From Candidatus Omnitrophota bacterium (lineage in GTDB: Bacteria > Omnitrophota > Gorgyraeia > Gygaellales > Profunditerraquicolaceae): a stretch of 64,000 nucleotides of DNA. Below the pieces are notes generated by a model that saw nothing but the letters and a program-made list of their open reading frames with translations, was not told the origin of the DNA and did no database searches. Both the position numbers and the translations under genes were made by a program. Positions within the stretch are counted from its first letter, which is position 1. Each line of letters opens with the position of its first letter. Shown in pieces: positions 1,592-45,722 of the stretch. The stretch is from assembly GCA_043823435.1 (NCBI GenBank), contig JBDRAV010000003.1, positions 32,366 to 96,365 of the forward strand, in the 5' to 3' direction.

Positions 1592-1666
1592 TCGGGGCGA
1601 GTGGACTTGAACCACCGACCTCAGCGTCCCGAACGCTGCGCTCTAGCCAAACTGAGCCACGCCCCG
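1592..1666 (-). tRNA. tRNA-Pro (anticodon CGG)
   Basis: Reverse complement reads CGGGGCG-TG-GCTC-AGTTTGGCTA-GAGC-G-CAGCG-TTCGGGA-CGCTG-AGGTC-GGTGG-TTCAAGT-CCACT-CGCCCCG-A. This is a full cloverleaf of 75 nt with CGG in the anticodon loop; CCA is not encoded. Confidence 0.9.
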
Positions 1667-2065: not shown

Positions 2066-2647
2066 TCAGGCGTCAACTCCGGATTTCTTGGCGAGGATAT
2101 CGAATTCAATATTGACCGTATCTGACGGGCCCTTGAACCCCAGGGTAGTATTCTTAAGGGTGTGCGGAATTACGTAAATAGCGAAAGTGCTTGCTTTTTT
2201 ATCCATGACGGTCAGGCTGATACCGTCTACAGCAACAGAACCTTTGGGCAAAATATAGCGCATGGATTTCACAGGTACGGCTATTTCAAAACAGAGATTA
2301 CCGTTAACATATCTTCTCCGCCGTATTACTCCGGTTAAATCGATATGGCCCGTGACAAAATGGCCGGAGAGCCTCTCTCCTATCTTTAAAGCGCGTTCCA
2401 GATTAACCTTCCCTTTTATCTTAAGATTCCCCAGGTTAGTAGCCTTAAGGGTCTCGGGCATAACCTCAAAGCTCACACTATCTTCTGCTTTTTCTACCAC
2501 GGTAAGGCAGGTACCGTTTACGGAAACGCTGTCGCCTTTCTTGGTATCCTGAGGTATTATTCTTGCATGTATCATCAATAAAGTAAGATTACCCCGCCTG
2601 GATATCTTTATTACTTCTCCTAATTCCTCTATTATTCCGCTGAACAT
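2066..2647 (-). CDS. ribE: Riboflavin synthase (alpha chain)
   Basis: MFSGIIEELGEV.. with two internally repeated lumazine-binding halves (..GDSVSVNGTCLTV.. and ..GSVAVDGISLTV..). Start moved to the ATG at 2645-2647; the track's GTG at 2659 lies inside the repeat element. Confidence 0.9.
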   Translation of the reverse strand: MFSGIIEELGEVIKISRRGNLTLLMIHARIIPQDTKKGDSVSVNGTCLTVVEKAEDSVSFEVMPETLKATNLGNLKIKGKVNLERALKIGERLSGHFVTGHIDLTGVIRRRRYVNGNLCFEIAVPVKSMRYILPKGSVAVDGISLTVMDKKASTFAIYVIPHTLKNTTLGFKGPSDTVNIEFDILAKKSGVDA

Positions 2648-2887
2648 AAGTGAGTGCACAATTTATGGAACGCCCCGCTACTCTAACTTAGGGTAACGGC
2701 GGGGTCCCGCCCTATATTACATGATTAGCGGGAAGTGAACATAAATTGTCTGCACGAACTTATACCTGACGCCTTGCTTTGTGGAACATAGCGTCAGGTA
2801 TTAATTCGCAGACGCTCGGAGACAGTAAAATTATGGACGCTATAACTTATTGCGCTACTTCGTAGCTCCATAAGTTATCTGCTCATT
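2648..2887. repeat. Composite mosaic element: two palindromic E1 units head to head around a central hairpin
   Basis: The left unit 2648-2760 is the AAGTGAGT.. variant and carries the 92-nt insert. The central hairpin is tacctgacgc/gcgtcaggta (2763-2772/2791-2800). The right unit 2806-2887 is inverted, with stem ataacttat/ataagttat (2842-2850/2870-2878) and terminus ctgctcatt. Together they fill the whole ribD-ribE spacer. Confidence 0.8.
2658..2749. ncRNA. Three-way-junction (TWJ) insert, copy 1 (candidate structured RNA or ssDNA element)
   Basis: Outer stem acaatttatg/cataaattgt. Hairpin CCCCGC..GCGGGG has a ~20-nt loop. Hairpin CCCGC..GCGGG has the conserved loop CTATATTACATGATTA. The junction carries GA/GA mismatches. 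Confidence 0.45.
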
Positions 2888-3974
2888 AAACATGCCCTTC
2901 TATCAGAAAGTCTTCGCCCATTCTCCTGAATCCGACTTCCTTTAATTTAAACGCTTTATCTATGCGCGCAACACCCTTGCCCATAACCGAGCTGATCGCA
3001 TCTTTTCCTCCTATGATTTTAGGACTGACAAAAAACAATACTTTATCCACGAGCCCTTCATCAAAGAGGCCTCCAATCAATGTCCCCCCGCCTTCAACAA
3101 GGATGCTGGTTATCTCAAGCTGCGCCAGCTTTTTCATCATATCTCTCAGATTTATCTGGCCTGATCTCTCCTTTACTTCCAATATCCTGGCCTTAGTGGA
3201 TAATACATTCCTATTCGCCGTCTCCTGCCCTGTTTTCACCGGTAAGGTAACGATTATTACGGAGCTATTACGGGAAAAGATACTGGTTTCTTCCGGAGTG
3301 CTCAACTGGCTGTCCACTATGATCTTAATAGGTTGTCTCCTGGAAAACCAGGCATCAAGCTTTGGATTATCTCTTAATACCGTATTCACGCCAACCATGA
3401 TCGCATCATAATGTACGCGCATCCGGTGTGCATAAAGGCGCGACACATCAGAAGTTATCCATTTCGAATTCCCGGTACGGGTTGCGATCTTCCCGTCCAG
3501 AGACTGCCCCACTTTAACCGTAACAAAAGGCATCTTGCGGGTAATATACTTAATAAAAGCTTCATTCAGTTTCTTTAATTTATCTGCAAGGAATCCCGTT
3601 TCGACCTTTATCTTCTGCGCCTTGAGTATCTTTATACCTTTACCGTTGTTGACGGGATTTGGATCAAGCATCCCCACAAAGACCCTTTTAATACCGCTCT
3701 TAATTATCTTATCTACGCATGGCGGAGTCCTCCCGAAATGCGCACATGGCTCAAGGGTCACGTAAAGATCTGCTCCTCTGGTTTGAAGCCCTGCGTCATC
3801 CAGGGCTAAAGATTCTGCATGAGGAAACCCAGCTTTATCGTGATAGCCACGGCCTATTATCCGGCCGTTCTTTACTACCACCGACCCGACGATAGGATTA
3901 GGGGAAGTCTTGTCTTTCCCTTTCAAAGCCAGCCTCAGGGCTAAATTCATAAAATATTCGTGGCCTCTAGGCAT
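2886..3974 (-). CDS. ribD: Bifunctional diaminohydroxyphosphoribosylaminopyrimidine deaminase / 5-amino-6-(5-phosphoribosylamino)uracil reductase
   Basis: N-terminal deaminase zinc motifs (FPHAE, LEPCAHFGRTPPC) plus a C-terminal RibD reductase domain; sits in rib operon context. Confidence 0.9.
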   Translation of the reverse strand: MPRGHEYFMNLALRLALKGKDKTSPNPIVGSVVVKNGRIIGRGYHDKAGFPHAESLALDDAGLQTRGADLYVTLEPCAHFGRTPPCVDKIIKSGIKRVFVGMLDPNPVNNGKGIKILKAQKIKVETGFLADKLKKLNEAFIKYITRKMPFVTVKVGQSLDGKIATRTGNSKWITSDVSRLYAHRMRVHYDAIMVGVNTVLRDNPKLDAWFSRRQPIKIIVDSQLSTPEETSIFSRNSSVIIVTLPVKTGQETANRNVLSTKARILEVKERSGQINLRDMMKKLAQLEITSILVEGGGTLIGGLFDEGLVDKVLFFVSPKIIGGKDAISSVMGKGVARIDKAFKLKEVGFRRMGEDFLIEGHV

Positions 3975-3978
3975 ATAT

Positions 3979-4800
3979 TTAAATCCTGTTTTGAGCTGCT
4001 TTCAACTTAACCACCAATTCATATGGAATTTTGACCGATCCTACCTTTACTTCTGGTTTAGCATTACCGTGGCAATCCGAACCTCCGGTAACCAATAAAT
4101 CATATTTTTTTGCTAAATTAAGATAGAAATTTATCATTGTACGGGTATATTCCGGATAATAAACTTCCAGACCCATGAGACCATAACCAACCAGTTCCGG
4201 TATCAACTCATCGCTATCAAGGGTATGCGGGTGAGCCAACACGGGTATCCCTCCTGCCCCCTTGATCAAGCCTATCGCTTCTATCGGTGGGAGCCTGAAA
4301 CCGCAGACATATGCGGGACACTTATCGCCGATGTATTTACGGAAGGCCTCTGCCGTAGAGCCAATAAGGCCTTCATTGACCATCGCCCTGGCAACATGGA
4401 GCCTGCCCACTGTGCCGTCTCCTGCAACATCAAACACGGAATCCGCATTGAAACGCAAGCCCATATCCTTAAGCCTGTCCGTTATCCTGTAGATACGCTC
4501 AATACGATTTTCTTTCAGAATATCTAACATGTCTAACAGGTTAGTATTTTTATAATCAATCAGGTATCCCAAAAGATGCACCTCTTTCCCGTCATGTTCT
4601 ACGGTAAGTTCTATGCCTGACAAGACTTCGATACCTTTTTCACCGGCCGCCTTTATCGCCGGCTCTACTCCGCAAACTGTGTCATGGTCGGTAACCGCGA
4701 TTGCCGCTAGAGCGCTATTTGAGCTCTCATTAACAAGTTCATCAGGAGCGTATGTCCCGTCCGAAAAGATAGTATGCAAATGCAGATCGGCAAATTTCAT
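3979..4800 (-). CDS. PHP-domain metal-dependent phosphoesterase (TrpH/YciV-like)
   Basis: MKFADLHLHTIFSDG start, later ..VTDHD.. and ..GGSDCHG.. metal ligands typical of the PHP family. Overlaps nusB by 4 bp. Confidence 0.75.
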   Translation of the reverse strand: MKFADLHLHTIFSDGTYAPDELVNESSNSALAAIAVTDHDTVCGVEPAIKAAGEKGIEVLSGIELTVEHDGKEVHLLGYLIDYKNTNLLDMLDILKENRIERIYRITDRLKDMGLRFNADSVFDVAGDGTVGRLHVARAMVNEGLIGSTAEAFRKYIGDKCPAYVCGFRLPPIEAIGLIKGAGGIPVLAHPHTLDSDELIPELVGYGLMGLEVYYPEYTRTMINFYLNLAKKYDLLVTGGSDCHGNAKPEVKVGSVKIPYELVVKLKAAQNRI

Positions 4801-5213
4801 TTTTCCTTTTTTAATTTTATTTTGTCAAGGATGCCATTGACGAACTTACTTGCCTCCAGGCTTGAATATTTCTTAGCCAATTCTACCGCTTCATTAATCG
4901 ATACCTTAAACGGTATATCATCGCGGAAGACAAGCTCGAAGCACCCCATACGCAAGATATTCCTATCCACTACCGCCATACGCTTAAGCTGCCAGTTGGT
5001 CGCATATCGAGCAATATTTTCATCGATGGCGTCCTTGTTTTCGATTACACCCTTGACTAACTCGCGGGTAAAATCCCTTATCTCATCGCTTGTATCATCT
5101 TCCCTGCGTGCCTGCCAAAAATTATTCAATGATTCATTATAATTGTCGTGCGTGATATCTGTCTGGTAAAGCACCTGCAGGGCGAATTCACGTGCTAAAG
5201 TACGTTTACGCAT
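4797..5213 (-). CDS. nusB: Transcription antitermination factor NusB
   Basis: 138 aa, REFALQVLYQ.. N-terminus and all-helical NusB layout; the classic position next to ribH. Confidence 0.85.
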   Translation of the reverse strand: MRKRTLAREFALQVLYQTDITHDNYNESLNNFWQARREDDTSDEIRDFTRELVKGVIENKDAIDENIARYATNWQLKRMAVVDRNILRMGCFELVFRDDIPFKVSINEAVELAKKYSSLEASKFVNGILDKIKLKKEK

Positions 5214-5359
5214 AAATGAGCAGACGGCTTACAGAGCATAGACTTACGTTTCAAGCGATGTAAATCGTAGACCGCAAGGCCGTCTGCGAGTTTATCCCGA
5301 CGAATGCGTAAAAGTTTTATTTAAAATTTTTACGCGGCATATGAGTCGGGATTAGGTTA
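5214..5359 (+). repeat. Mosaic element (E1 variant plus nested hairpin module)
   Basis: AAATGAGC at 5214-5221 directly abuts the nusB start. Long-range stem gcagacggc/gccgtctgc (5220-5228/5279-5287). Then nested stems TCCCGAC..GTCGGGA and GCGTAAAA..TTTTACGC. Ends ..attaggtta at the ribH stop. Confidence 0.7.
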
Positions 5360-5827
5360 TTATTTTATCTGTGTTAACAGGTTTACCATTTCAATGGCAG
5401 ATAAAGCAGCATCCCTGCCCTTATTGCCCTCTTTTGTGCCCGCACGCTCTACTGCCTGCTCAATGGTATCGGCGGTAATAATGCCGAAAATCACGGGCAG
5501 TCCGGTATCCAATGAAACCTTAGCGATACCCTTGGTTACTTCCGAGGCGATATAATCGAAATGCGGCGTTGAGCCCCGGATAACCGTACCCAGACAAATC
5601 AGGGCATCATATGACTTTGACTTAGCTAATTTCTGCGCAATCAAAGGAACTTCAAACGCCCCCGGGACCCATGTAACTGTCAGCTCATCGTTATCTGCCC
5701 CGTGCCTGACCAGCGTATTAAGACACCCGCTGACCAGTTCCTTGGTAATAAAATCATTGAAACGAGAAGCTATAACTGCGAATTTCCTGCCTTTGGCAAT
5801 TAAATTGCCCTCCCTTGTTTTTACCAT
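5360..5827 (-). CDS. ribH: 6,7-dimethyl-8-ribityllumazine synthase
   Basis: [28 protein letters not shown].. Start moved to the ATG at 5825-5827, which follows AAGGAGGG; the track start at 5851 lies inside the repeat. Confidence 0.9.
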
Positions 5828-5849
5828 CTTTCCCTCCTTAAATGAGCAC

Positions 5850-5942
5850 ATAACTTACGAGCACGTCCCGCTATTCTCATTTGAGATAACGGCGGGATCC
5901 CGCCCGATATTGCATGATGAGCGGGAAGTGCGAGTAAGTTAT
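5850..5942. ncRNA. TWJ insert, copy 2
   Basis: Outer stem ataacttac/gtaagttat, GA/GA junction, stem GCAC/GTGC, hairpin TCCCGC..GCGGGA (T-A replaces C-G of copy 1), hairpin CCCGC..GCGGG with loop CGATATTGCATGATGA. Confidence 0.45.
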
Positions 5943-6050
5943 TGTGCTAGCTTCTTCACTTTGTTCAGAACCGTCCACGATTCCTTAAGTAAAGCGAAGG
6001 ACGATTTATGCCCCACCTTATTAAGAACTATAAAAGAGCCCAATGAACGC

Positions 6051-6141
6051 ACAACTTAGCGAGCCCCCGCTCGGCTATTTAAAGCAAATGCAAGGTCCCG
6101 CCCGATAATCACATGATTAGCGGGAAGCAAAGCTAAGTTGT
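6051..6141. ncRNA. TWJ insert, copy 4 (first hairpin degenerate)
   Basis: Outer stem acaacttagc/gctaagttgt. The second hairpin CCCGCC..GCGGG with loop CGATAATCACATGATTA is retained. Confidence 0.35.
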
Positions 6142-6192
6142 ATGCGCGAATTTACATCCTACCTTATTAAAAGCCATAAAAGGATGTTAGGT

Positions 6193-7416
6193 TCAATCTA
6201 TATCCAGATTATGACCAAGCTTCTCCTTCTTGGTCTTAAGATAATTATAATTTTCCGGGTTAGGAGCGATCTCAAGAGGAAATCTCTCAACCACCACAAG
6301 GCCATAGCCTTCCAAGCCTACAATCTTGCGGGGATTGTTCGTAAGAAGCCTGATATTCTTAAGTCCCAGGTCCGCGAGAACCTGAGCCCCTATTCCGTAA
6401 TCTCTGAGGTCTGCCTTATGCCCCAATGCTTCATTTGCCTCCACAGTATCAAGACCCTTATCCTGCAAATTATAGGCCTTTATCTTCTCCGCAAGGCCTA
6501 TGCCACGGCCCTCCTGGCTCATATAAAGAATAACTCCTTTTTTTTGACGGCCGATGATCTCCATTGCCTTATCAAGCTGCTTGCCGCAATCACAACGCAA
6601 GGACCCGAATACATCTCCGGTAAGGCATTCGGAATGCACCCGAACAAGGGTTGCAGAATTATCAAGTTTACCCATAGTAAGCGCAATATGAAAATGCTTG
6701 TGGATCAGGTCCCTGTATAGTATCAATTCGTAAGTTCCGTATTCCGTAGGAAGTATAGTCCGGGAAACCCGTTCGATCAGTTTTTCAGAACGCCTTCGGT
6801 ATTGGATAAGATCAGCTATTGAACAGATCTTAAGGCGGTGCTCCTTGGAAAATTCCAACAACTGCGGGAGCCTTGCCATCGCGCCGTTATCATTCATAAT
6901 TTCACAGATTACTGCTGCAGGATAAAGACTGGCCATCTTCATAAGATCTACGGATGCCTCGGTATGGCCTGCCCTTACCAGAACTCCTCCTTTAAGCGCC
7001 CTCAGAGGAAAGATATGACCGGGCCTGACCAAATCTACCGGTTGAGAAGCGGGATTTACTAAGACCTCTATTGTACGCGAACGGTCATAAGCAGAAATAC
7101 CTGTAGTAATGCCTTTGGCTGCATCCGCCGAAATCATCCATGCGGTAGAAAAAAGGTCTTTTCTATTATATATATCTTTGCTTTCCAGCATCGGTTGCAA
7201 AGCTAACTCCTGTAATCTTTCATCTTCCATGGGCACACAGATCAGCCCGCGACCATGCTTTGCCATGAAGTTTATATCATCCGGCCTGGCAAAAGATGCA
7301 GCCATAACCAGATCCCCTTCATTCTCGCGGTCCTCATCATCCACGACAATAACCATCTTGCCGGCCTTTAAATCTTCCAGTATTTCAGGTATATTATTAA
7401 GCATAAGTGAAGACAT
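6193..7416 (-). CDS. ribBA: Bifunctional 3,4-dihydroxy-2-butanone-4-phosphate synthase / GTP cyclohydrolase II
   Basis: DHBP synthase half (MVIVVDDEDRENEGDLV) plus GTP cyclohydrolase II half (CLTGDVFGSLRCDCG, QEGRGIGL). The true start may be the ATG at 7402-7404, because codons 1-4 lie inside the repeat. Confidence 0.9.
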   Translation of the reverse strand: MSSLMLNNIPEILEDLKAGKMVIVVDDEDRENEGDLVMAASFARPDDINFMAKHGRGLICVPMEDERLQELALQPMLESKDIYNRKDLFSTAWMISADAAKGITTGISAYDRSRTIEVLVNPASQPVDLVRPGHIFPLRALKGGVLVRAGHTEASVDLMKMASLYPAAVICEIMNDNGAMARLPQLLEFSKEHRLKICSIADLIQYRRRSEKLIERVSRTILPTEYGTYELILYRDLIHKHFHIALTMGKLDNSATLVRVHSECLTGDVFGSLRCDCGKQLDKAMEIIGRQKKGVILYMSQEGRGIGLAEKIKAYNLQDKGLDTVEANEALGHKADLRDYGIGAQVLADLGLKNIRLLTNNPRKIVGLEGYGLVVVERFPLEIAPNPENYNYLKTKKEKLGHNLDID

Positions 7417-7639
7417 AATTTATGGAGCGCCCCGCTACTACATTTTGAGATAACGGCGGGGTCCCGCACCATATTACATGATTATCGGGAAACGAACATA
7501 AATTATTTGTCTGAACTTATACCTTGCGTTTTACCTTGTAAAACGCAAGGTATTAATTCGCAGGCGCTGATAGACAGTAAAATAATAAACGCTATAACTT
7601 ATGCCGCTACTTCGTAGCTCCATAAGTTATCCGCTCATT
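7405..7639. repeat. Composite mosaic element, same architecture as 2648-2887
   Basis: Left unit with TWJ insert. Central perfect 14-bp hairpin taccttgcgtttta/taaaacgcaaggta (7520-7533/7539-7552). Inverted right unit with ataacttat/ataagttat (7594-7602/7622-7630), ending ccgctcatt. Confidence 0.8.
7415..7506. ncRNA. TWJ insert, copy 3
   Basis: Outer stem ataatttatg/cataaattat, hairpin CCCCGC..GCGGGG, hairpin CCCG..CGGG with loop ..CCATATTACATGATTAT. Confidence 0.45.
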
Positions 7640-7670
7640 AAAAAAAATAAACCCGAAGATAATCTTCGGG
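7640..7670 (-). terminator. Intrinsic terminator, expression platform of the FMN riboswitch
   Basis: Minus strand reads CCCGAAG-AUUAU-CUUCGGG followed by UUUAUUUUUUUU. The 5' arm is complementary to the riboswitch P1 5' strand (UAAUCUUCGGGG), giving the usual antiterminator alternative. Confidence 0.8.
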
Positions 7671-7685
7671 CGATAGAAAAACTTA

Positions 7686-7885
7686 TTAATCCTCTCCTAT
7701 CTGGACTATCCACCCAATTCAATTTGATGAATCGGTGTCCGCTGCTGCGGCACCCGATCCTATCTGATGAATCGGTGTCCGCTGCTGCGGAACCATCGGC
7801 CCCGGAATGTCACCGGGTCTGCCCCATTTTGTGGGGCTCGCGGGCTCTACCGCCGGTAAGGAATTCCACCTTCCCCGAAGATTAA
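7686..7885 (-). promoter_or_regulatory. FMN riboswitch (RFN element), unusually long
   Basis: Minus strand reads CUUCGGGGAAGGUGGAAUUCCUUACCGGCGGUAGAGCCCGCGAGCC..GGUGACAUUCCGGGGCCGAUGGU..AUAGUCCAGAUAGGAGAGG. This matches the conserved RFN core. P1 is UUAAUCUUC/GAGGAUUAA. It lies upstream of ribBA. Confidence 0.9.
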
Positions 7886-7896
7886 TGTATTTATAA

Positions 7897-14452: not shown

Positions 14453-16516
14453 TTATTTTTCCTCTGCCTGCTTTTTGCTTAAATTGATCCTGCCTAATTC
14501 ATCTATCCCCGTGACCTTGACCTTTACCTCATCTCCTATCTTAACCGCATCTTCTACATTCTTTACGAAAGTGGCGGATAACTCAGAGACGTGCACCAGG
14601 CCTTCCTTGCCAGGGGCGATCTCGCAAAAAGCTCCGAACGGCATTATGCGCTTTACCTTGCCTATATATACGCGGCCGACCTCGATATCATCGGTTATCG
14701 CTTTTATCATATCGATCGCGGCTTTGGATTTTGAAGCTTCATTGGAAGCAATCAGTACGCTCCCGTCATCCTGGATATCAATGCTTGCGCCTGTCGTAGC
14801 GATGATCTTCTTTATATTCTTGCCTCCCGGGCCGATAAGCGCACCAATCTTCTCCGTGTTCACCTTGATGATCTCTATGCGCGGGGCCTGGGCGGACAAC
14901 TCATGGCGCGGTTCTGCTATCGCCTCTTTCATTTTGCCCAGAATGAATGCCCTTGCCTCCTTTGACTGCAAAAGGCATCTGTTTAGCAAATCCAGGTCGA
15001 TACCGTCTATCTTTAAGTCTAACTGTATCGCGGTGATGCCGGCCTTTGTCCCTGCAACCTTAAAATCCATATCCCCGAAGTGGTCCTCAAGGCCGGTGAT
15101 ATCGGTTAAAATAACCGCCTTTTTATCATCTTTTATAAGGCCTAAAGCGACCCCGCCTACCGCATCTTTTATAGGCACACCGGCATCCATTAATGACAGG
15201 GTTGCCGCGCATACCGTAGCCATGCTCGAAGAACCGTTAGACTCTAAAATCTCTGAGACTACCCTTATGGTATAAGGGAATTTCTCTTTAGAAGGCATAA
15301 CCGCAAGGAGAGACTTTTCGGCTAAAGCGCCGTGTCCTATCTCGCGGCGGCCCGGGCCGCGCACAGGGCGGGTCTCGCCCACGCTAAAAGGAGGAAATGT
15401 GTAATGCAGCATAAATGTTTTATTCTTTTCTCCTTCTAATGCCTCAATAAGTTGTTCGTCTTCACCCGTTCCCAGGGTAGTAACGGCTAAACTTTGCGTC
15501 TGTCCGCGCGTAAAAAGGCTTGAGCCATGGGTGCGCGGCAATACAGGAACATCACAGGTAATATCGCGGATATCCTTGAAACCGCGTCCGTCTATACGCA
15601 CATTCTCATTTAATATTTTATTGCGCACCTGCATCTTTTCTACCTCAACCAGGGCCGCTTTGATATCCTCGGCTAAATATCCGTCAGGAGTGAGTTTTAA
15701 TTCCAGCTCTTTGGATAACAAATCTATTTCTTCCTCGCGCTCTTCCTTTTTGCTTAACTTGTAGACTTCCTTTAGTTTCTCCACCGATAATTCCTCTACT
15801 TTATCCCTTAAGGCAGATTCTATCTTTTTGCATTCAACGGTTGCTTTTGGCTTGCCGTATTTATGCGTGAACTCTTTCTGCAGTTGGAGTATGCCCTTGA
15901 GTTCATCGGAACAGAATTTAAGCGCCTCCATGACCGATTCCTCGGATACCTCTTTGGACTTAGCCTCGAGCATTACAATGCCCTTATTGTTAACAACCAC
16001 AACTATATCCAGATCCGATTTCTCAAGCTGTTCATAGGTAGGGTTAATGACCATCTGGTTATCCACGCGCCCCACGCGGCAGCACGCCAAGGGCCCGTTA
16101 AAAGGGATATCGGATATTGACAGAGCCGCTGATGCGCCTATTACCGCAAAGATATCAGGGTCGTTTTCACCGTCGCTAGACAGGACGATAGCCATAACCT
16201 GGACGTCATTAAGGAACCCTTCAGGAAAAAGCGGGCGTATCGGCCGGTCAATAAGGCGCGCGGTCAAGATCTCGCTTTCAGAAGGCCTGCCCTCTCTCTT
16301 GAAAAAGCCGCCCGGTATCTTGCCTGCGGCATATGTCTTCTCCTGATACTCTACGGTTAGAGGAAAAAACCCCTGCCCCTCTTTGACTTCCCTGGACATG
16401 CAAGCAGTAGCCAGCACCACGGTGCCTCCGTACTGGACGACAACCGAGCCGTTAGCCTGTTTAGCCATCTTTCCGGTTTCAAGGATTAATTCGTTATTAC
16501 CAAATTTATTTTTCAT
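14453..16516 (-). CDS. pnp: Polyribonucleotide nucleotidyltransferase (PNPase)
   Basis: 687 aa with two RNase PH domains, KH and S1 domains; downstream of rpsO as usual. Confidence 0.95.
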   Translation of the reverse strand: MKNKFGNNELILETGKMAKQANGSVVVQYGGTVVLATACMSREVKEGQGFFPLTVEYQEKTYAAGKIPGGFFKREGRPSESEILTARLIDRPIRPLFPEGFLNDVQVMAIVLSSDGENDPDIFAVIGASAALSISDIPFNGPLACCRVGRVDNQMVINPTYEQLEKSDLDIVVVVNNKGIVMLEAKSKEVSEESVMEALKFCSDELKGILQLQKEFTHKYGKPKATVECKKIESALRDKVEELSVEKLKEVYKLSKKEEREEEIDLLSKELELKLTPDGYLAEDIKAALVEVEKMQVRNKILNENVRIDGRGFKDIRDITCDVPVLPRTHGSSLFTRGQTQSLAVTTLGTGEDEQLIEALEGEKNKTFMLHYTFPPFSVGETRPVRGPGRREIGHGALAEKSLLAVMPSKEKFPYTIRVVSEILESNGSSSMATVCAATLSLMDAGVPIKDAVGGVALGLIKDDKKAVILTDITGLEDHFGDMDFKVAGTKAGITAIQLDLKIDGIDLDLLNRCLLQSKEARAFILGKMKEAIAEPRHELSAQAPRIEIIKVNTEKIGALIGPGGKNIKKIIATTGASIDIQDDGSVLIASNEASKSKAAIDMIKAITDDIEVGRVYIGKVKRIMPFGAFCEIAPGKEGLVHVSELSATFVKNVEDAVKIGDEVKVKVTGIDELGRINLSKKQAEEK

Positions 16517-20420: not shown

Positions 20421-22112
20421 TCATCTAAAAAAGATATCCTTCCCTTGTAATAAAATGCTCCCCCTGCCATGCCAATCATCAATCTTTGGAGTATAAACCA
20501 TATCAAAACTACCGGCGTTCATCATGCTGTCTTTAAAACTGCCCATGCCAAACCCTATCGCCTCAAGGGTAATATCTCCGTCTGTAACCCAGAATTTCAA
20601 AGTATCCCTGCTTAAAATTTGCGGTTCCCCCTTGAGTTGAAGTCCTCTGGTATAAAACAAAGGTTCGGGGTTGCCTGTGCCAAAAGGCTCAAGGCCGTTG
20701 AATTCGCCTATGACTTGCGCGTTAATATCCGACAAAGATAACTCCATATCTACATCTATACTGGGTAGCAAATCTTTCAAAACCATCTTTTCTTTTGCCA
20801 GACGGTTAATCTTATCCCTGAAATCCGCTATGTTATCACTGGTTATGATAAGGCCTACGGCGTGGCTGTGGCCCCCGAATGTCTTAAGATAATCCTTACA
20901 TTCCAGAAGCGCCTCAAAGAGATGGAAATTCTTTATGGAGCGCCCGGAACCTTTACAGATACCTCCTATTTTAGATATAACGATAGTCGGCCTGTAGAAT
21001 TTATCCGCGAGTTTTGAAGCCACTATCCCTAAAACTCCCTGATGCCAATCCTCCTTGGCGATGACAATAATCTTGTGTTCCTTAAAATTGATCTCCCGGT
21101 CGATTAAATCATGCGCCTCTTCCATTATCTTCTCCTCTATCTTCTGGCGCTGGCGGTTAAGCTCTTCTATCTTCCTGGCAATAGTCAATGCCTCGTTATC
21201 ATTACGGCTCAGGAGCAGATTTAACGCAATCTCGGCTGTATCCACGCGGCCGCTGGCATTGATACGGGGAGCCAATATAAAACTTACAAAACCAGAAGTT
21301 ATCTTTTTACCTTTGATGCGGCTGGTCTCTATAAGGGCCTTGATACCGGGCCTTTCAGAATGCGTTAGTTTTACCAATCCTTCCTTGACGATAACGCGGT
21401 TCTCACCGGTAAGCGGGGCAACGTCAGCGATAGTCCCCAGAGAAACCAAATCCAGGTCATCGAGCAACTTCTTGCCGGTAATAGCCTGACAGAGCTTATA
21501 AGCCACGCCTACCCCGGCCAGATCCCGGTATTTATAACGGCTACCTTTTATTTTAGGGTTTATGACGGCCGAGGCGCAAAGCGCCATATCGTGATTTGCC
21601 GGTTCATGGTGGTCAGTCACTATCACATCTATATTATGCCGCCTTAATTCTTTTATCTCCTCATTATTACCCGTTCCGCAATCTACCGTAATCAGAAGCG
21701 ATATGCCTTTCTGCCTGGCTAATTGAATACTCTTCCTGTTTAACCCGTAACCATCATTTATTCTATGCGGGATATAATGGGTTGTTTCCACTCCTACCAT
21801 GGCAAGCGTTTCCTTTAACAGCGCAAGCGCGGTCAGGCCGTCAACATCGTAGTCCCCGAATATCATAACCTTTTTTTTATTTTTAGCCGCGTCCTTGATA
21901 ATATTGACGGCCTTTTGCATATCAACAAACAAAAACGGGTCTAACATATTGTCCGGAACAGGCATCAGAAATTCTTCTGCTTCTTCTGGATCATTAATGC
22001 CGCGGTTTATCAATAACTGGGCCAGGATATTAGAAATATCAAGCTCTCTGCTTAAAATGTTCTGCAGGTGGGATTTGGGTGAAGGGATATTTAATATTTT
22101 GTGGCTGCGCAT
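20421..22112 (-). CDS. recJ: Single-stranded-DNA-specific exonuclease RecJ
   Basis: DHH motifs (IFGDYDVDG, VDCGTGN, VIVTDHH) and a DHHA1 domain (GGHSHAVG). Confidence 0.9.
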   Translation of the reverse strand: MRSHKILNIPSPKSHLQNILSRELDISNILAQLLINRGINDPEEAEEFLMPVPDNMLDPFLFVDMQKAVNIIKDAAKNKKKVMIFGDYDVDGLTALALLKETLAMVGVETTHYIPHRINDGYGLNRKSIQLARQKGISLLITVDCGTGNNEEIKELRRHNIDVIVTDHHEPANHDMALCASAVINPKIKGSRYKYRDLAGVGVAYKLCQAITGKKLLDDLDLVSLGTIADVAPLTGENRVIVKEGLVKLTHSERPGIKALIETSRIKGKKITSGFVSFILAPRINASGRVDTAEIALNLLLSRNDNEALTIARKIEELNRQRQKIEEKIMEEAHDLIDREINFKEHKIIVIAKEDWHQGVLGIVASKLADKFYRPTIVISKIGGICKGSGRSIKNFHLFEALLECKDYLKTFGGHSHAVGLIITSDNIADFRDKINRLAKEKMVLKDLLPSIDVDMELSLSDINAQVIGEFNGLEPFGTGNPEPLFYTRGLQLKGEPQILSRDTLKFWVTDGDITLEAIGFGMGSFKDSMMNAGSFDMVYTPKIDDWHGRGSILLQGKDIFFR

Positions 22113-22201
22113 AAATGAGCAGATAACTTATGGAGCCACGAAGTGGCGATATAAGTTATAACGTCCATCATTTTATCTGTCTATCAGTGTCTGCGAATTT
22201 A
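22111..22201 (+). repeat. E1 palindromic element exactly filling the argS-recJ spacer
   Basis: TAAATGAGC..GCGAATTTA termini. Stem ataacttat/ataagttat (22123-22131/22151-22159) with inner GCCAC-GAA-GTGGC. The left end touches the recJ ATG; the right-end TTA is the argS stop codon. Confidence 0.8.
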
Positions 22202-30442: not shown

Positions 30443-30533
30443 TTATCCTTTCATAGTTTTAATGAGGTGGGATATAAATTCGCACACATAACTTACTCAC
30501 GCCATAGCGTTCGTAAGTTATGTGCTCATTTAT
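30443..30533 (-). repeat. E1 plus module B element filling the trpD-trpC spacer (sense orientation)
   Basis: Minus strand reads ATAAATGAGCACATAACTTAC..GTAAGTTATGTGTGCGAATTTATATCC..GGATAAATG. Stems at 30485-30496/30513-30524 and ATCC/GGAT (30445-30448/30470-30473). The trpD TAA lies inside the terminus. Confidence 0.8.
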
Positions 30534-35484: not shown

Positions 35485-35585
35485 TTAAATGAGCGCATAA
35501 CTTACGGAGCGCGAAGTGCGACGTAAGTTATTTGCGCGAATTTACACCCTTCCTTATTAATAAATATAAAAGGGAGTTAGGTTTA
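35485..35585 (+). repeat. E1 plus module B element filling the rho-rpmE spacer
   Basis: TTAAATGAGCGCATAACTTACGGAGCGCGAAGTGCGACGTAAGTTATTTGCGCGAATTTAC, then the hairpin CCCT..AGGG with loop TCCTTATTAATAAATATAAA. Ends ttaggttta on the rho stop. Confidence 0.8.
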
Positions 35586-41347: not shown

Positions 41348-41529
41348 TTAGGCTACCATTAACCAAACATGGAAATTAATGAGGCGTGACGAATATGTAG
41401 TTTATTTATGGTAAAAATGCGATATTCGATTAGGTTAGCTTCCTCTAAAGCAGTTTGGAAGGCCTGCTTGTTATTACCTGTGTTCATTATATAAGATATA
41501 AGAAAAAACTAAAAAAAGCAAGAAAAAAA

Positions 41530-41814
41530 TTAAATGAGCAGACAACTTACGGAGCGTTAGCGAAGTAAGTTGTAGCGAAGCGTCTGCGAATTTACACCAT
41601 ACTTTATTAATAACTATAAGCGGTGCTAAATGAGCCCACAACTTACGAACACGCCCCGCTCCTCTTAACTAGAATAAAGGCGGGGTCCAGCCTCTATCTT
41701 ACATAATCAGCTGGAAGTGCGAGTAAGTTGTAGCGAAGCGTCTGCGAATTTACCCCACAGCTTATTAATAATCACAAAAGGGGGATAGGATTGATGCCTA
41801 CAACTTACATTCAC
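41530..41814 (+). repeat. Mosaic element string downstream of acsB (E1, module B, E1+TWJ, module B, partial E1)
   Basis: AAATGAGC at 41532 and 41628. Stems acaacttac/gtaagttgt at 41542-41550/41565-41573 and 41638-41646/41723-41731. GCGAATTTAC at about 41586 and 41745. Confidence 0.8.
41638..41731. ncRNA. TWJ insert, copy 5
   Basis: Hairpin CCCCGC..GCGGGG. The second hairpin changes from CCCGC/GCGGG to CCAGC/GCTGG, a double compensatory change. Loop TCTATCTTACATAATCA. Confidence 0.45.
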
Positions 41815-43995
41815 TTACAACATAGGTGGCATCTCTAATACAGGGTGTTTGACTCTCGTCAGAAAGGCCAACAACTCCTCCTGCGTGGTAGCGGTTGTTT
41901 CATCGGCGATCTTATCAACTAGGTCCGGTTCCCCTATCTCCTGTGCGCGCTTCGTAAACCTCTCGCCTAAAAGCTCTTTCAGCTCCTTGGGCATCCAGAC
42001 TAACCGCTTAAGCCCCCCCTCTGCCGAGATAAACTTCTTACTTACTATATATAATTTCCCCACTCCCAGGAAACCTGGTGTTTGCACGCCTCCCCCTACG
42101 GAACCGGCCAGGGTAGTAAAGGTCATGCCGCTGGGTGTCATTCCGGCATAATCGCGGTTAACTATCATCACGCCGTTAGCTTCCGGGATTATCGCCACGA
42201 TGCACTCGAAACATCCGCAGGAAGACTGGGGCGAATCCATAAGCGAATACATACTTACCTTATCAACGGTCTTATTAGACTTCTGGTAAAAGAAATCATT
42301 TATATTCTTCCACTGGCCCAGTTTTTCATCCAAGGTCTGGCCTTTTAATACCGGTTGATTCGGCCCGGTAGGAACGATCTCATATGAGGCCTTACCGTCA
42401 AGCCATGAATACGCCCCGCATAACCCCAGGCGCTCCGGAGTAATAATACAAACGTGGTTGGGCGCAAAACTCTGGCAAAGCGTGCAGCTGTAAAATGTAT
42501 CAACGCTCTCATCGGTCATCCCGCTCATACGCTCATCGCGCTCATCGAATGCCTTTTTCGCCTCAGGCAGAAGCCTATCTACGTCCTCCGACTTGGTATA
42601 TATTTTAATCTGCACCTTATCTACGATAGCGCTATACTCCTGATGCAACATGGCATGCAGGATAATGCCAATATGTTTAAGGCGAAAACCCTTGCTAAAG
42701 GCATCATTTGATATACGTATCCAGTTCATATCGCGCTGGCCTATATGCATAAGGCCCATCGCATAATTTATGAAGCGGTGAACCTGGCGTTCCAGGATAG
42801 GCTCAAAATCCTTCTGCATCTTGCGTCCGGAGACCTCAACGATAATGGCCATGGGCATGAATTTCTTGCCTTTCTCTAAAGCGTCTATATCCGTACCTAT
42901 AAGTTCTACTTTGCCGTCTTCGACCTCCTCTGATTTCCTGGTCATCAAATATTCAAATGAAGTGCTGCTTTTACTGCCGAATTCAACATACAGCTGTTCT
43001 TTCCTTACCCGTTCTCCTTCGAATGCGGCAGCATAAGCAACGGGTATGGGTATCGATGTAACTTTGACTTTTACGCCTCTTACTTCAATACACCGCGGCA
43101 CGATCTTTTTATAATCCAACTCCTTAACCAGCGCTTCGTAAGTAGTGATACCGGAAGGTGTTATCTGCGGGATATCGGTATCGGCGATTATCGGAAAACC
43201 CATATTTATGGCTCCGGCTCCTGTCGCGTATTTTATATCGTCCAGTTCTCCAAGGACAAGGCCAAAGGCAAATACGCGCTCCTTGGTATATAGAAGACAT
43301 TTCTCTGTCTGTCCGGGCTTAAGCCCTCCGAAGGTTAATGCGGAACGGATCGCCCAGTTCAAAGGGTATATCGCCGATATGGTATCGCGGCCGTAAGGGA
43401 CAATATAATTATCCCATCCCATCTGCACATTTTCTTCCAGCAACTGATCAATTATCGAACGGCCATTGACCTGTGAACCGACAAAGATCAGGATATTCCT
43501 CTGCTGTAATTCCCGCACTATTTCCACAGCCGTCTTATTATCCGGAGCTGCCCCCAGTATAGCGGCAAATCCGGGCATGCGGCCGTCCACAAGCTGTATG
43601 CCCAGGGAACGCATGATCGTATCAGTAAAGAACCCGTTGCAATCATTCTGGGGCTCCTGGCCGTAAAGATAACGCAACGCTACGATTATCTCTTCCGAAA
43701 ATAACGCAGACATACCGGCGTTTAAGGCATCCCCCAGATAAGGAAGCCATATTTTATCCGAAGGGATATCAGGCAAGAGAGATTTCGCGTGCGCCAATAT
43801 AGGCAGGGCATCCTTCAGGGTTTCGACCTTCGCTCCCAGGAGCGCATTGGCAAAAGGCAGATAAAACGCCGTCTCCGGGAAACCTATCTTCTCTGCCTCA
43901 CCCTTATCTTTAATTGCCTTATCCATAAAATCAGACGCCTGCTTGAATATGTCATGGGCACCTTTAATAACTGAAGTTGCTACAATCTTAGACAT
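41815..43995 (-). CDS. acsB: CO-methylating acetyl-CoA synthase (A-cluster subunit of CODH/ACS)
   Basis: 726 aa. FPETAFYLPFANAL N-terminal region, cluster ligands CTLCQSFAPNHVCIITPERLGLCGA, and the Cys-Gly-Cys motif SCGCFEC. Confidence 0.9.
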   Translation of the reverse strand: MSKIVATSVIKGAHDIFKQASDFMDKAIKDKGEAEKIGFPETAFYLPFANALLGAKVETLKDALPILAHAKSLLPDIPSDKIWLPYLGDALNAGMSALFSEEIIVALRYLYGQEPQNDCNGFFTDTIMRSLGIQLVDGRMPGFAAILGAAPDNKTAVEIVRELQQRNILIFVGSQVNGRSIIDQLLEENVQMGWDNYIVPYGRDTISAIYPLNWAIRSALTFGGLKPGQTEKCLLYTKERVFAFGLVLGELDDIKYATGAGAINMGFPIIADTDIPQITPSGITTYEALVKELDYKKIVPRCIEVRGVKVKVTSIPIPVAYAAAFEGERVRKEQLYVEFGSKSSTSFEYLMTRKSEEVEDGKVELIGTDIDALEKGKKFMPMAIIVEVSGRKMQKDFEPILERQVHRFINYAMGLMHIGQRDMNWIRISNDAFSKGFRLKHIGIILHAMLHQEYSAIVDKVQIKIYTKSEDVDRLLPEAKKAFDERDERMSGMTDESVDTFYSCTLCQSFAPNHVCIITPERLGLCGAYSWLDGKASYEIVPTGPNQPVLKGQTLDEKLGQWKNINDFFYQKSNKTVDKVSMYSLMDSPQSSCGCFECIVAIIPEANGVMIVNRDYAGMTPSGMTFTTLAGSVGGGVQTPGFLGVGKLYIVSKKFISAEGGLKRLVWMPKELKELLGERFTKRAQEIGEPDLVDKIADETTATTQEELLAFLTRVKHPVLEMPPML

Positions 43996-44008
43996 ACCAT
44001 CTCTCCTT

Positions 44009-44335
44009 TAAATGAGCCCACAACTTACGGAACAACGTGAACGTAAGTTGTTTGGGCGAATTTACCTCCCACCTTATTAATAAACAATAAAAGGAGGATA
44101 AGTTATATCCCATAACTTACGGAACGCAAGTGAACGTAAGTTGTTTGGGCGAATTTACCTCCCACCTTATTAATAAACAATAAAAGGAGGATAAGTTATA
44201 TCCCACAACTTACGGAACAACGTGAACGTAAGTTGTTTGGGCGAATTTACCTCCCACCTTATTAATAAACAATAAAAGGAGGATAAGTTATATCCCACAA
44301 CTTACGGAACGCAAGTGAACGTAAGTTGTTTGGGC
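44009..44335 (+). repeat. Tandem array, 3.5 units of 92/93 bp (E1 hairpin plus module B hairpin), ABAB pattern
   Basis: Units start at 44017, 44109, 44202 and 44294. Units 1 and 3 have loop AACAACGTGAA; units 2 and 4 have AACGCAAGTGAA. The last unit is truncated after TTTGGGC. Confidence 0.9.
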
Positions 44336-44450
44336 TAGTTCTTCGCTTTGCTTCGGAATCATCCGCAATCACCAAATATAGCAACGGATGAATTTACTTC
44401 GCTTGCTTCCAAGCATTTTGGATGCGAAGCAAATCCAAGACTCTAAGCTT
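44336..44450 (+). repeat. Module C copy plus terminal hairpin
   Basis: ctagttcttcgctttgcttcggaatCATCCGcaatcaccaaatatagcaaCGGATGaattta parallels 5947-6010, with CGTCC/GGACG replaced by CATCCG/CGGATG. It is followed by the hairpin CTTCGC..TCCAA-GCATT-TTGGA..GCGAAG. Confidence 0.65.
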
Positions 44451-45722
44451 TTAGACATACATACCTTCTTTATCTTTTACAAAATCCATAATATCGGGAT
44501 AACCGAAGTTTTCCTGCAATAACCTGTCTTTAAAAGAAGATACGTTTATCCTCTCCCTGATCAATCTTAAAAATACCCCGCTGTTGCTGATATTACCGAC
44601 GAATGTTGCCCCGACAATAAGGTTGTCTTTAAGGATTATCTTTTTGTAAATATTCTCTTTTGTGTCGCAGAGCCCGAATTCCTCGAAAGCATCTTGGGCC
44701 CCCCTTACCTTATATAGCCCCAGCGATACTACGGGGAGACCGAAAAATTCTATGGAGTTCATCCCCAGGGAACCTGTATAGGTAAGACCGGCATCTTTAC
44801 CTAACATATTGGCCCCGGCGATCCTACCCTCTTCTACCGCAACCGGCCAGAGCGCATTCACCGCAGGCTTTCCCAAGGTAAGATCGTAACTCTCGCACAC
44901 ATCTCCTCCGGCATAGATATTTTGAATACTAGTCTGCATTGTATTATCGGTAAGTATGCCTTCCTCAAATTTTATCTCTGTATCCTTAATCGGATCTATA
45001 TTGGGGACAACGCCCTTACCTACAATTATCAAGGAAGCTTCAAAGGCCCTCCCAGAATCAAGCTTAACCGCTTTTATATCGCCGTTACCGATAATCTCTG
45101 CTACATCTTGCCCTAAAATTATTTCGATTCCGTTTTCTTCCAGTCTTCTTTGCACAAAACCGGCGGCTTCAGAATCCAGCATCTGCGATAATACCTGTTT
45201 AGACTTTATAATAACTTTTACTTCGACACCTCTCTTCTTTAGGCCATACGCTGCCTTAAGGCCGACCAGTCCGCCGCCTAAAACACAGGCTGCCTTTGTC
45301 ACCGGCAATAACCCGCTAATATCATTTGAATCCTTTATGGTGCGAAAACCAAATACGCCTCTTTTCTTGATACCTTTAATTTCGGGGAATTTAGGTGAAG
45401 CGCCCGTCGCTATAAGCAGGGCGTCATAATTAAACTGAGTTTTGTCTTCTAGGATTATACGGTTCTTTTTAGGGTCAATACGCGATACTTTCTTATTCAA
45501 AAAGAGCTCGGTATTATTTTCTTTATAAAAACTTTCCGGGCGGTATAAAATCTTTTCTTCTTTTATATCACCTGCCAAATAATATGAAATAAGGCAGCGG
45601 CAGTAAGCAGGATAATCCTCATCCGAGAAAACAAGGACTTTAGAAGCCCTGTCTTTTTCTCTTATGGCTTCGGTTGCAGCGATACCCGCTGCTGAATTAC
45701 CTATAATGATAAATTGTTTCAT
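44451..45722 (-). CDS. FAD/NAD(P)-dependent pyridine nucleotide-disulfide-family oxidoreductase (CODH-associated)
   Basis: N-terminal GNSAAG dinucleotide fold, a second GGGLVGLKAA fold; position next to cooF and cooS. Confidence 0.7.
   Translation of the reverse strand: MKQFIIIGNSAAGIAATEAIREKDRASKVLVFSDEDYPAYCRCLISYYLAGDIKEEKILYRPESFYKENNTELFLNKKVSRIDPKKNRIILEDKTQFNYDALLIATGASPKFPEIKGIKKRGVFGFRTIKDSNDISGLLPVTKAACVLGGGLVGLKAAYGLKKRGVEVKVIIKSKQVLSQMLDSEAAGFVQRRLEENGIEIILGQDVAEIIGNGDIKAVKLDSGRAFEASLIIVGKGVVPNIDPIKDTEIKFEEGILTDNTMQTSIQNIYAGGDVCESYDLTLGKPAVNALWPVAVEEGRIAGANMLGKDAGLTYTGSLGMNSIEFFGLPVVSLGLYKVRGAQDAFEEFGLCDTKENIYKKIILKDNLIVGATFVGNISNSGVFLRLIRERINVSSFKDRLLQENFGYPDIMDFVKDKEGMYV

Follow-up and report, generated by a model that had tools for sequence, protein, structure and literature searches.

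Several kinds of short repeats described in bacterial genomes offer points of comparison for the locus analyzed here. The REP, REPIN and BIME sequences of Proteobacteria are mobilised by RAYT, a Y1/HUH transposase, and the class-1 REPs carry a GTAG-like tetranucleotide 5' of their palindrome. Asymmetric conserved hairpins are the target of the single-strand-specific HUH transposases in both IS200/IS605 and REP elements. The BOX elements of Streptococcus pneumoniae display a boxA-boxB(n)-boxC organization in which boxB is 45 nt long. The hairpins formed by the ends of the Correia (NEMIS) elements are substrates of RNase III in Neisseria. REP doublets may themselves be repeated in tandem, as documented in Pseudomonas fluorescens and E. 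coli (PMC3337134).

The DNA considered below, designated as the window, is a stretch of 64,000 nt from a metagenome-assembled contig of an Omnitrophota bacterium. A spacer of 455 nt, located immediately upstream of acsB, is occupied by hairpin-forming units repeated in tandem. The spacer probably results from the local accumulation of a hairpin-forming, non-autonomous DNA repeat, similar in kind to REP/REPIN-BIME, BOX or MITE, which was inserted and then amplified.

Layout of the spacer upstream of acsB

The genes of this region are carried by the minus strand in the order FolD, MTHFR, CooS, a CooF-like ferredoxin, an oxidoreductase (44451-45722), the 455-nt spacer, AcsB (41815-43995), a second string of repeats and PolA. 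Pfam agrees with the assignments made in the initial annotation (acsB, FAD oxidoreductase, cooF, cooS and the methyl-branch genes, here MTHFR and FolD): the ORF at 41815-43995 matches ACS_CODH_B_C and CdhC, and the one at 44451-45722 matches Pyr_redox_2/Rubredoxin_C. The start codon of acsB (43993-95) and its Shine-Dalgarno sequence AAGGAGAG (44001-08) together span 43993-44008 on the minus strand. The 10-nt direct repeat GTATGTCTAA, present on the minus strand at 43988-43997 and again at 44451-44460, where it contains the oxidoreductase stop codon (44451-53), marks a duplicated junction between the oxidoreductase stop and the acsB start.

The top-scoring repeat of the window according to Tandem Repeats Finder is the array at 44017-44335, with a period of 93, 3.5 copies, 95% matches and a score of 589. 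Reading in register yields units of 92/93 nt starting at 44017, 44109, 44202 and 44294, in agreement with the positions first annotated. Each unit is composed of a strong imperfect palindrome of 56 nt, named H1, followed by a weak hairpin, named H2, and the remainder of the spacer is filled by a further module, C. The initial annotation had described two alternating loop variants and the duplication of a 185-bp dimer, and both are borne out: units 1 and 3, mutually identical, carry the loop AACAACGTGAA and units 2 and 4 the loop AACGCAAGTGAA, in the order ABAB. The dimer at 44017-44201 and the next 185-nt dimer differ at a single position (44113, T/C) over the 134 nt common to both, and the last duplication was therefore a recent one that involved the AB dimer.

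A covariance model of H1, designated R1, comprises 19 base pairs and was built from 16 copies. The model is strand-specific, and all four H1 of 44009-44335 match it on the plus strand, opposite to the genes. Copy 1 is a complete beta-type palindrome (44009-44064; 73.5 bits on the plus strand versus 20.3 on the minus strand) of the form TAAAT-GA-GCCC-ACAACTTACG-GA-loop-GA-CGTAAGTTGT-TT-GGGC-GA-ATTTA. Its outer end, TAAATGAG (44009-44016), is also the end of the array and directly abuts the complement of the acsB ribosome-binding site (44001-08), where the array had indeed been said to end; on the mRNA, this side reads GGGCUCAUUUAAAGGAGAGAUGGUAUG. Copy 1 of H2, a weak CCTCC..GGAGG hairpin (44065-44097, plus strand), is homologous to the H2 at 6150-6193, 35540-35583 and 41748-41791, and is followed by the 11-nt linker ATAAGTTATAT (44098-44108). 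The next H1 (copy 2, 44109-44157, plus strand, loop AACGCAAGTGAA) is devoid of the left outer arm (R1 match 44099-44157, 50.4 bits), and its H2 (44158-44190, plus strand; linker 44191-44201) is identical to the first. The series continues on the same strand with H1 copy 3 (44202-44249, loop AACAACGTGAA; R1 match 44192-44249, 47.4 bits), H2 copy 3 (44250-44282; linker 44283-44293), and H1 copy 4 (44294-44335, loop AACGCAAGTGAA; R1 match 44294-44334, 42.9 bits). Module C then stands where the other units have GCGAATTTA-H2. This module, whose presence 3' of the array was correctly annotated, extends over 44336-44450 (plus strand) and contributes two more hairpins; its start (CTAGTTCTTCGCTTTG..) is homologous to 5951-6030, likewise placed after an H1.

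The array is real and very young. Its copy number is that read from one metagenome assembly, and one may consider that the element upstream of acsB is genuine and that its 3.5-unit ABAB structure results from short-read mis-assembly or from mixed strains. Such an artefact would be in keeping with the source, a MAG contig of 165,882 nt, with the identity of 95-100% between units and with the retrieval of no second assembly of the source population: AcsB and the oxidoreductase yielded nothing in exact-protein look-ups, and a metagenome scan with a unit-junction 20-mer matched one contig only, which is unrelated. The genomes nearest to the window display 90% AcsB identity only. However, the ordered ABAB succession of two loop variants, together with the private substitution at 44113, is atypical of collapse or expansion, the array passes cleanly into the acsB ribosome-binding site on one side and into module C, which is unique, on the other, and tandem arrays of such elements are known elsewhere (PMC3337134). 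An artefact is accordingly regarded as quite unlikely.

When folded in the sense of the mRNA, H1 reaches -18.9 kcal/mol (z -4.7 versus shuffled sequence), and the four H1 of the array about -19 each; copy 1 on the plus strand reaches -22.5 kcal/mol. Module C (115 nt) folds at -36.4 kcal/mol, with a z of -3.1 versus shuffled sequence. H2 attains -11.2 kcal/mol (z -1.65), a value equalled by 14 of 200 shuffles. The initial annotation had counted seven or more strong hairpins between the upstream genes and acsB; the four H1 and module C do fold better than shuffled sequence, but the three H2 are weak. The array was also considered for its coding capacity, which was rejected: its only ORFs, of 20-44 aa, are made by the repeat itself and none is credible. 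No Rfam 15 family matches the H1 elements in a search of the whole window at the gathering threshold, and searches at E<=10 over 41450-44500 and 2500-7700 returned chance-level matches only. The gathering-threshold search of the window did report an FMN riboswitch and a tRNA, both located elsewhere.

The string TTGTTT-17-TAAATT is present on the minus strand of every array unit. It had been qualified as a weak promoter-like sequence, an opinion shared here, as 7 of the 12 consensus positions are matched when counted on the sequence. On this basis, the element could be seen as a mobile terminator-promoter-leader cassette in which H2 would terminate the transcript coming from upstream, TAAATT would serve as -10 box and H1 as a protective 5' hairpin of the downstream gene, the array providing acsB with several weak promoters. 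TAAATT does lie within a conserved linker, GTAAATTCGC, with TTGTTT placed 17 nt upstream in the array units, and H2 directly follows stop codons in single units. Such a cassette is nevertheless highly improbable. A scan for consensus sigma-70 promoters (hexamers, 16-18 nt spacing) and intrinsic terminators (G+C-rich stem followed by a T-run) found none on the minus strand of 44009-44450, and the region-wide counts of both signals are at or under shuffle expectation. Moreover, the -35 position falls within H2, whose sequence varies between copies, the linker reads TTAATTC or CCAATTC in many relatives, both poor -10 boxes, and H2 is devoid of a U-tract.

The H1 family, its distribution and its stems

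The H1 consensus, 56 nt in length, is TAAAT-GA-GCNNN-AYAACTTAYG-[GA-loop-GA]-CRTAAGTTRT-(2-nt bulge)-N'N'N'GC-GA-ATTTA, followed by the variable, G+C-rich hairpin H2. Repeat search, blastn and R1 together located about 16 copies in the window, at 2647, 2827, 5838, 6040, 7404, 7582, 22112, 30475, 35486, 41531, 41627 and within 44009-44334, and the spacer is built, as first proposed, from modules of a dispersed repeat family. All these copies are intergenic and, together with variant modules at 5209 that were identified by repeat search and reading and were missed by R1, they fill nine sites. Besides the array, the modules occupy 2645-2890, 5209-6193, 7402-7642, 22112-22201, 30459-30532, 35486-35583 and 41531-41814, for a tally, array included, of about 2 kb or 3% of the window. 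A single H1-H2 unit on the plus strand at 35486-35583 (R1, 70.9 bits) exactly fills the spacer between rho and rpmE, and represents the reference single-copy form of the array unit. The second string announced after the acsB stop is real as well: it extends on the plus strand over 41531-41814, directly 3' of the stop codon, and consists of an H1 (41531-41594), a long-form H1 (41627-41752) and an H2 (about 41753-41800), so that acsB is bracketed by such strings. Single-sequence nhmmer searches with the long-form inserts and module C as queries found nothing outside the window.

The family was searched in related genomes by applying R1 to 80 acsB-centred loci from GTDB genomes, each including the 10-kb flanks of acsB. 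Thirteen of them, all Omnitrophota-type, are positive (L002, L007, L014, L016, L017, L020, L021, L025, L028, L049, L053, L072 and L080). A further locus fetched separately, L083, displays a weak R1 match (18.3 bits, E 0.088) that reading of the sequence confirms as an H1 remnant, bringing the count to 14 of the 83 related Omnitrophota loci examined. R1 found no match in L001, L003-L006, L008-L013 and L015, nor in the loci labelled Elusimicrobia, Kiritimatiellia or Clostridia. The density can be high, as in L025 with 8 copies in 22 kb; in this locus as in the window, H1 lies outside coding sequence save for ends overlapping a stop or start codon. The H1 family is lineage-restricted and patchy. 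Spread by phage was considered and rejected, as a degenerate left-arm pattern occurs in 74 viral contigs at about the frequency estimated for chance and none was confirmed by the covariance model; R1 likewise gave no match in a control of 610 kb of viral DNA.

The placement of the elements relative to genes is precise. The hairpins of the family are of the TAAGTGAG/TAAATGAG type, and, with few exceptions, H1 has a gene on the side of its outer TAAATGAG end. About 21 of these ends lie directly against a Shine-Dalgarno sequence and start codon in complement, the mRNA reading GCUCAUUUAAAGGAG..AUG; about 15 times, a gene on the same strand takes its stop codon from the TAA or TGA contained in TAAATGA. 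In a few copies of the window, a start codon is completed by the terminal A of H1 (CTCATTTA directly followed by TG). R1 also revealed about 12 convergent pairs of the form H1 -> H2 <- H1, in which the two H1 usually differ in subtype, TAAGTGA..GAACTTA versus T(A/T)AATGA..GAAT(T/A)TA, and are not mutually complementary. At many sites such a pair exactly fills the intercistronic gap with its outer TAAATGAG ends directed toward the neighbouring genes, one end enclosing the stop codon (TAA or TGA) of the upstream gene and the other touching the Shine-Dalgarno sequence or start codon of the downstream gene, and both single copies and pairs are seen in either orientation relative to transcription. 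The units of the array correspond to 'half' elements of the second subtype, T(A/T)AATGA..GAAT(T/A)TA. The stop/Shine-Dalgarno junction is either the target of the H1 family or the only place where these compact operons tolerate it.

The stems of H1 covary in a strict manner. In the seed alignment of 16 sequences, 98% of the cells are paired, compensatory changes affect 13 of the 19 pairs, and 58 double changes are counted versus 1 single-side change, a count inflated by the use of a palindrome filter in selecting some of the seed sequences. Among the 49 model-aligned R1 matches, 824 Watson-Crick pairs are accompanied by 15 G.T and 10 A.C pairs. An RNA selected on one strand normally displays many G.U pairs and few A.C pairs. 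No such bias exists in the H1 stems, and the palindrome would therefore be maintained at the DNA level; the changes, almost all strictly Watson-Crick, point to a DNA palindrome and not to an RNA selected on one strand. Three other classes of repeated structure were also rejected on the basis of sequence. H1 carries none of the core sites of integron attC, the 'spacers' between repeats are identical, which excludes CRISPR repeats, and the stem sequence covaries freely, which the site of a DNA-binding protein would not tolerate, so that operator palindromes were discarded.

Several asymmetries are kept in every species. Two tandem G.A/A.G mismatches (AAT-GA-GC...GC-GA-ATT and the inner junction) are present throughout, the 3' arm always bears a 2-nt bulge, and motifs of the loop, among them GCAAGTGAA, are also conserved. 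The family is common to species with only 61-90% AcsB identity, and loop motifs of this type persist across that range. The G.A mismatches, the bulge, the loop motifs and the way in which the elements exactly adjoin stop codons and ribosome-binding sites suggest a constraint beyond selfish spread. Extended to all these features jointly, the constraint could mean that H1 is an Omnitrophota-wide, structure-constrained hairpin recognised by a dedicated single-strand-specific enzyme or binding protein and targeted to the stop/Shine-Dalgarno junctions of tight operons, one of its ends providing a stop codon and the other sparing the ribosome-binding site. The element would then be a mobile insulator, or a processing site, between cistrons, whose copy number would tune downstream output, e.g. 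that of acsB. Taken as a whole, this combination of properties is given a low probability.

The same observations bear on the idea, already present in the initial annotation, of an effect on mRNA stability or processing, according to which the array would be a selected cis-acting RNA device, kept in order to uncouple acsB from cooS-cooF-oxidoreductase by means of different mRNA half-lives or processing sites, as REP/BIME does in malEFG or RNase III sites do in the early mRNA of phage T7. Such a device may be supported by the strong folding of H1 in the mRNA sense reported above, which involves about 21-25 bp with the internal loops included, a span close to the size of an RNase III substrate, by the precise location of the elements, in many genomes, in the interval that separates stop codon and ribosome-binding site, and by the constraint that the conserved G.A motifs and loops indicate. 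The stems speak against it, as G.U is not in excess over A.C and single-side changes are almost absent. In addition, the conserved G.A mismatches are located on the strand antisense to acsB and the mRNA consequently carries U.C/C.U. With the evidence from related genomes presented below, a selected RNA device appears unlikely.

Related loci and the origin of the spacer

The oxidoreductase and acsB genes of about 25 Omnitrophota relatives are not separated by any spacer and share 8 nt, the stop of the former overlapping the start of the latter (ATGTCTAA; ..AAGGAGAGnnTGTATGTCTAAG..); the junction is single and non-duplicated (..TATGTCTAAG.. / ..GGAGAGnnTGTATGTCTAAG..). Of the three closest genomes, two (L082 and L084, with 90% AcsB identity) are also of this type. 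The third, L083, has an acsB DNA sequence 99.3% identical to that of L082, yet carries an 83-nt H1 remnant directly before the ribosome-binding site, within a locally divergent patch. Insertions of the family at this junction are patchy and involve two more loci: L014 harbors a full convergent pair, the last codons of the oxidoreductase being replaced by the insertion, and L049 harbors another family member in the opposite orientation. As most relatives are devoid of a spacer and the insertions are patchy, the spacer is therefore derived and lineage-specific, and the junction has been hit repeatedly. The second string at 41531-41814 has no counterpart in the acsB-polA spacer of L082 and L083. 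These comparisons also weigh against a selected RNA device, since most relatives, including two of the three closest, lack the spacer, the array is the sole tandem array of the H1 family in 1.25 Mb, and its internal near-identity indicates a recent origin. The initial annotation had envisaged a comparison of array length between related genomes; no other tandem amplification of the H1 family was found in the 1.25 Mb of related DNA scanned, a result that, with the spacerless junction of the 25 or so relatives, argues against a conserved regulatory role. The best reading of these sequences is that the spacer would be a recent, lineage-specific insertion of REP/MITE-like "junk" DNA and not a conserved control region.

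A comparable situation is observed between rho and rpmE, both identified by Pfam (the latter as L31) in syntenic loci. The site is empty, TAA(A)GGAG, in about 20 genomes and filled in the window, L016, L017, L021, L025, L053 and L080 by members that differ in sequence; its occupancy is without correlation to AcsB relatedness. Unrelated hairpin repeats also occur at rho-rpmE in other genomes, e.g. three tandem ACACC..GGTGT hairpins in L082 and L083. Comparison of empty and filled sites (L084 versus L083 and L014; rho-rpmE) allows a TA or TAA duplication, but the same bases form part of the outer helix, which covaries. In both the window and L049, about 20 nt of the gene junction are duplicated instead, unlike the product of a simple transposase cut. 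In the window, GTATGTCTAA is found at 43988-97 and 44451-60, and the ancestral sequence is almost entirely preserved in the downstream copy, AAAGGAGAGATGGTATGTCTAA. The presence of two junctions leaves both genes intact.

The origin of the pile-up of inserted repeats may be summarized as follows. In the ancestral state, the oxidoreductase stop would have overlapped the acsB start (TATGTCTAA). The junction would then have been duplicated in the lineage of the window, the H1, H2 and C modules coming between the two copies. Neighbouring H1 copies may next have undergone unequal homologous recombination or replication slippage, by which an H1-H2 unit was amplified, with the duplication of the 185-nt AB dimer as a probable final step. 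Translational coupling between the oxidoreductase and acsB would have been lost in the process, acsB presumably being translated from the ribosome-binding site that it has kept. Four hairpins of about 20 bp would have been added to the operon mRNA, where they could stand in the way of 3'-5' exonucleases or serve as cleavage sites for RNase III. Any consequence of this type for the mRNA would be an incidental by-product of the array and not the reason for its existence. With regard to the enzyme involved, a tblastn search with an E. coli RayT sequence as query gave no match in the window or in the H1-bearing loci, and weak matches only in L073 and L024, both devoid of H1.

For the biology of acsB the array matters little, being a recent insertion into an operon that is elsewhere overlapping and translationally coupled. 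The interest resides in H1 as a repeat family of an uncultured phylum, without a Rfam match and without a description found in the full-text literature, where a search on Omnitrophota intergenic repeats returned nothing relevant. The precise placement between stop codon and ribosome-binding site, as well as the strict Watson-Crick covariation combined with conserved G.A mismatches, make it worth recording. The family also displays presence/absence polymorphism between near-identical genomes. In practical terms, the elements probably fragment short-read Omnitrophota assemblies, and genes can be shortened or lengthened at their ends by such insertions, as L014 and L083 illustrate. Their insertions constitute natural test cases for the uncoupling of overlapping genes, and a cognate enzyme, if found, would extend REPIN-like systems well beyond Proteobacteria.

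Comparison with described repeat families

MITEs and the Correia (NEMIS) elements resemble the H1 elements in being small, non-autonomous, provided with inverted ends, inserted beside genes and co-transcribed, with a possible TA target. The terminal inverted repeats typical of MITEs are present, as the composite elements end in TAAATGAG...CTCATTTA. In the Correia elements, however, the terminal inverted repeats form a single pair of 26 bp, the TA duplication is clear, and promoter and IHF sites are carried, whereas each end of an H1 element is itself a 56-nt palindrome and the duplication is ambiguous.

The array resembles BOX in its modular, intergenic nature, with direct tandem middle modules of variable number placed between two different end modules, in strong folding upon transcription and in the lack of coding capacity. 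There is no sequence relationship between the two, the phylum is another one, and the repeated unit is the two-hairpin H1-H2 of 92/93 nt instead of the 45-nt boxB.

The REP/REPIN/BIME sequences share with H1 their nature of short imperfect palindromes, extragenic only and present in many copies per genome. They also share frequent inverted doublets, mosaics with linker modules and tandem clusters (PMC3337134). In both cases, a conserved asymmetry of the hairpin (mismatch or bulge) tells the strands apart, and the elements sit between cistrons in operons. A number of differences must be mentioned. H1 is larger (at least 56 nt versus about 20-40 nt for REP), it is without GTAG and has instead T(A/T)A(A/G)TGAG as 5' flank and outer helix (flank TAAATGAG), and its family is shared by species with 61-90% AcsB identity. 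The REP orientation alternates in BIME-2, whereas the four H1 of the array are all direct. A pair of H1 would not fold into one long REPIN hairpin because its two H1 usually differ in subtype.

The array is placed in no named family. With regard to REP/RAYT, a GTAG-type flank is absent, and the RayT search covered the window and the H1-bearing loci, where it gave no match. The analogy with REP/BIME drawn in the initial annotation is nonetheless apt, tandemly repeated REP doublets being already known (PMC3337134). By this comparison, the array upstream of acsB is judged to work like REP/BIME or BOX and to belong to that general kind of repeat.

Remodelling at the acsB junction

In two related loci, L014 (7380-7660) and L083 (9897-9949), the element has inserted ahead of the acsB ribosome-binding site and has thereby exchanged the final 6-7 codons of the preceding oxidoreductase gene for element-encoded residues. 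The new C-terminal tail of the L014 protein reads ..SEDITYASH*. Gene ends are therefore remodelled by the family of H1, the 56-nt imperfect palindrome. L083 differs from L082, a locus from a second MAG of the same study whose acsB DNA is 99.3% identical, by an 83-nt H1 remnant that immediately precedes the ribosome-binding site of acsB (L083 9860-10020 versus L082 2260-2330). A short patch around this remnant is closer to L084, another close relative, and to the window than to L082, a resemblance suggesting either that recombination has exchanged alleles or that the bins contain mixed strains.

Long-form copies and start codons in the window

Long-form H1 is found at 2647-2762, 5838-5950, 6040-6154, 7404-7519 and 41627-41752. 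Its loop holds a nested palindrome of about 70 nt (TCCCGC..GCGGGA, centered on GGCGGGATCCCGCC) and its folding energy is about -50 kcal/mol. The short form looks like the product of internal deletions between GAGC repeats. At four copies of the family (22112, 5215, 2647 and 7404), the terminal A of the element serves as the first base of the start codon predicted for the neighbouring gene (CTCATTTA|TG), with no Shine-Dalgarno sequence between element and start codon. Either the start codons of these genes are mis-called or initiation takes place directly 3' of the hairpin without a ribosome-binding site.

Further tandem repeats are present. A 40-nt unit duplicated in tandem at 7711-7794 (2.1 copies, 88% matches) reaches into the 3' end of an FMN riboswitch scoring above the Rfam gathering score (7757-7887, minus strand); the site lies upstream of the rib genes and adjoins a pair of H1 copies (7404-7641). 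A 64-nt unit repeated 2.4-3 times (1667-1854), unrelated to the H1 family, directly flanks a tRNA gene (1592-1666, minus strand).

The rho-rpmE gap and other repeat types

A hot spot for insertions lies between the stop codon of rho and the ribosome-binding site of rpmE. This gap is filled by the H1 family in seven genomes (the window, at 35486-35583, L016, L017, L021, L025, L053 and L080), is empty (TAAGGAG) in about 20 and is occupied by unrelated repeats in further genomes. L024 and L026 have yet another type of repeat, in which GGTTATTGG / GGTTAAGG motifs are abundant, in both the acsB-upstream and rho-rpmE spacers. In the rho-rpmE spacer of L082 (10389-10535), L083 (18082-18228) and L013 (about 14660-14720), three hairpins of a second family, unlike H1 (ACACC-NNNCC-loop-GGNNN-GGTGTGC-ACTTxCTG), stand in tandem and covary. 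Strings of tandem hairpins between cistrons are therefore not confined to the H1 family in Omnitrophota.
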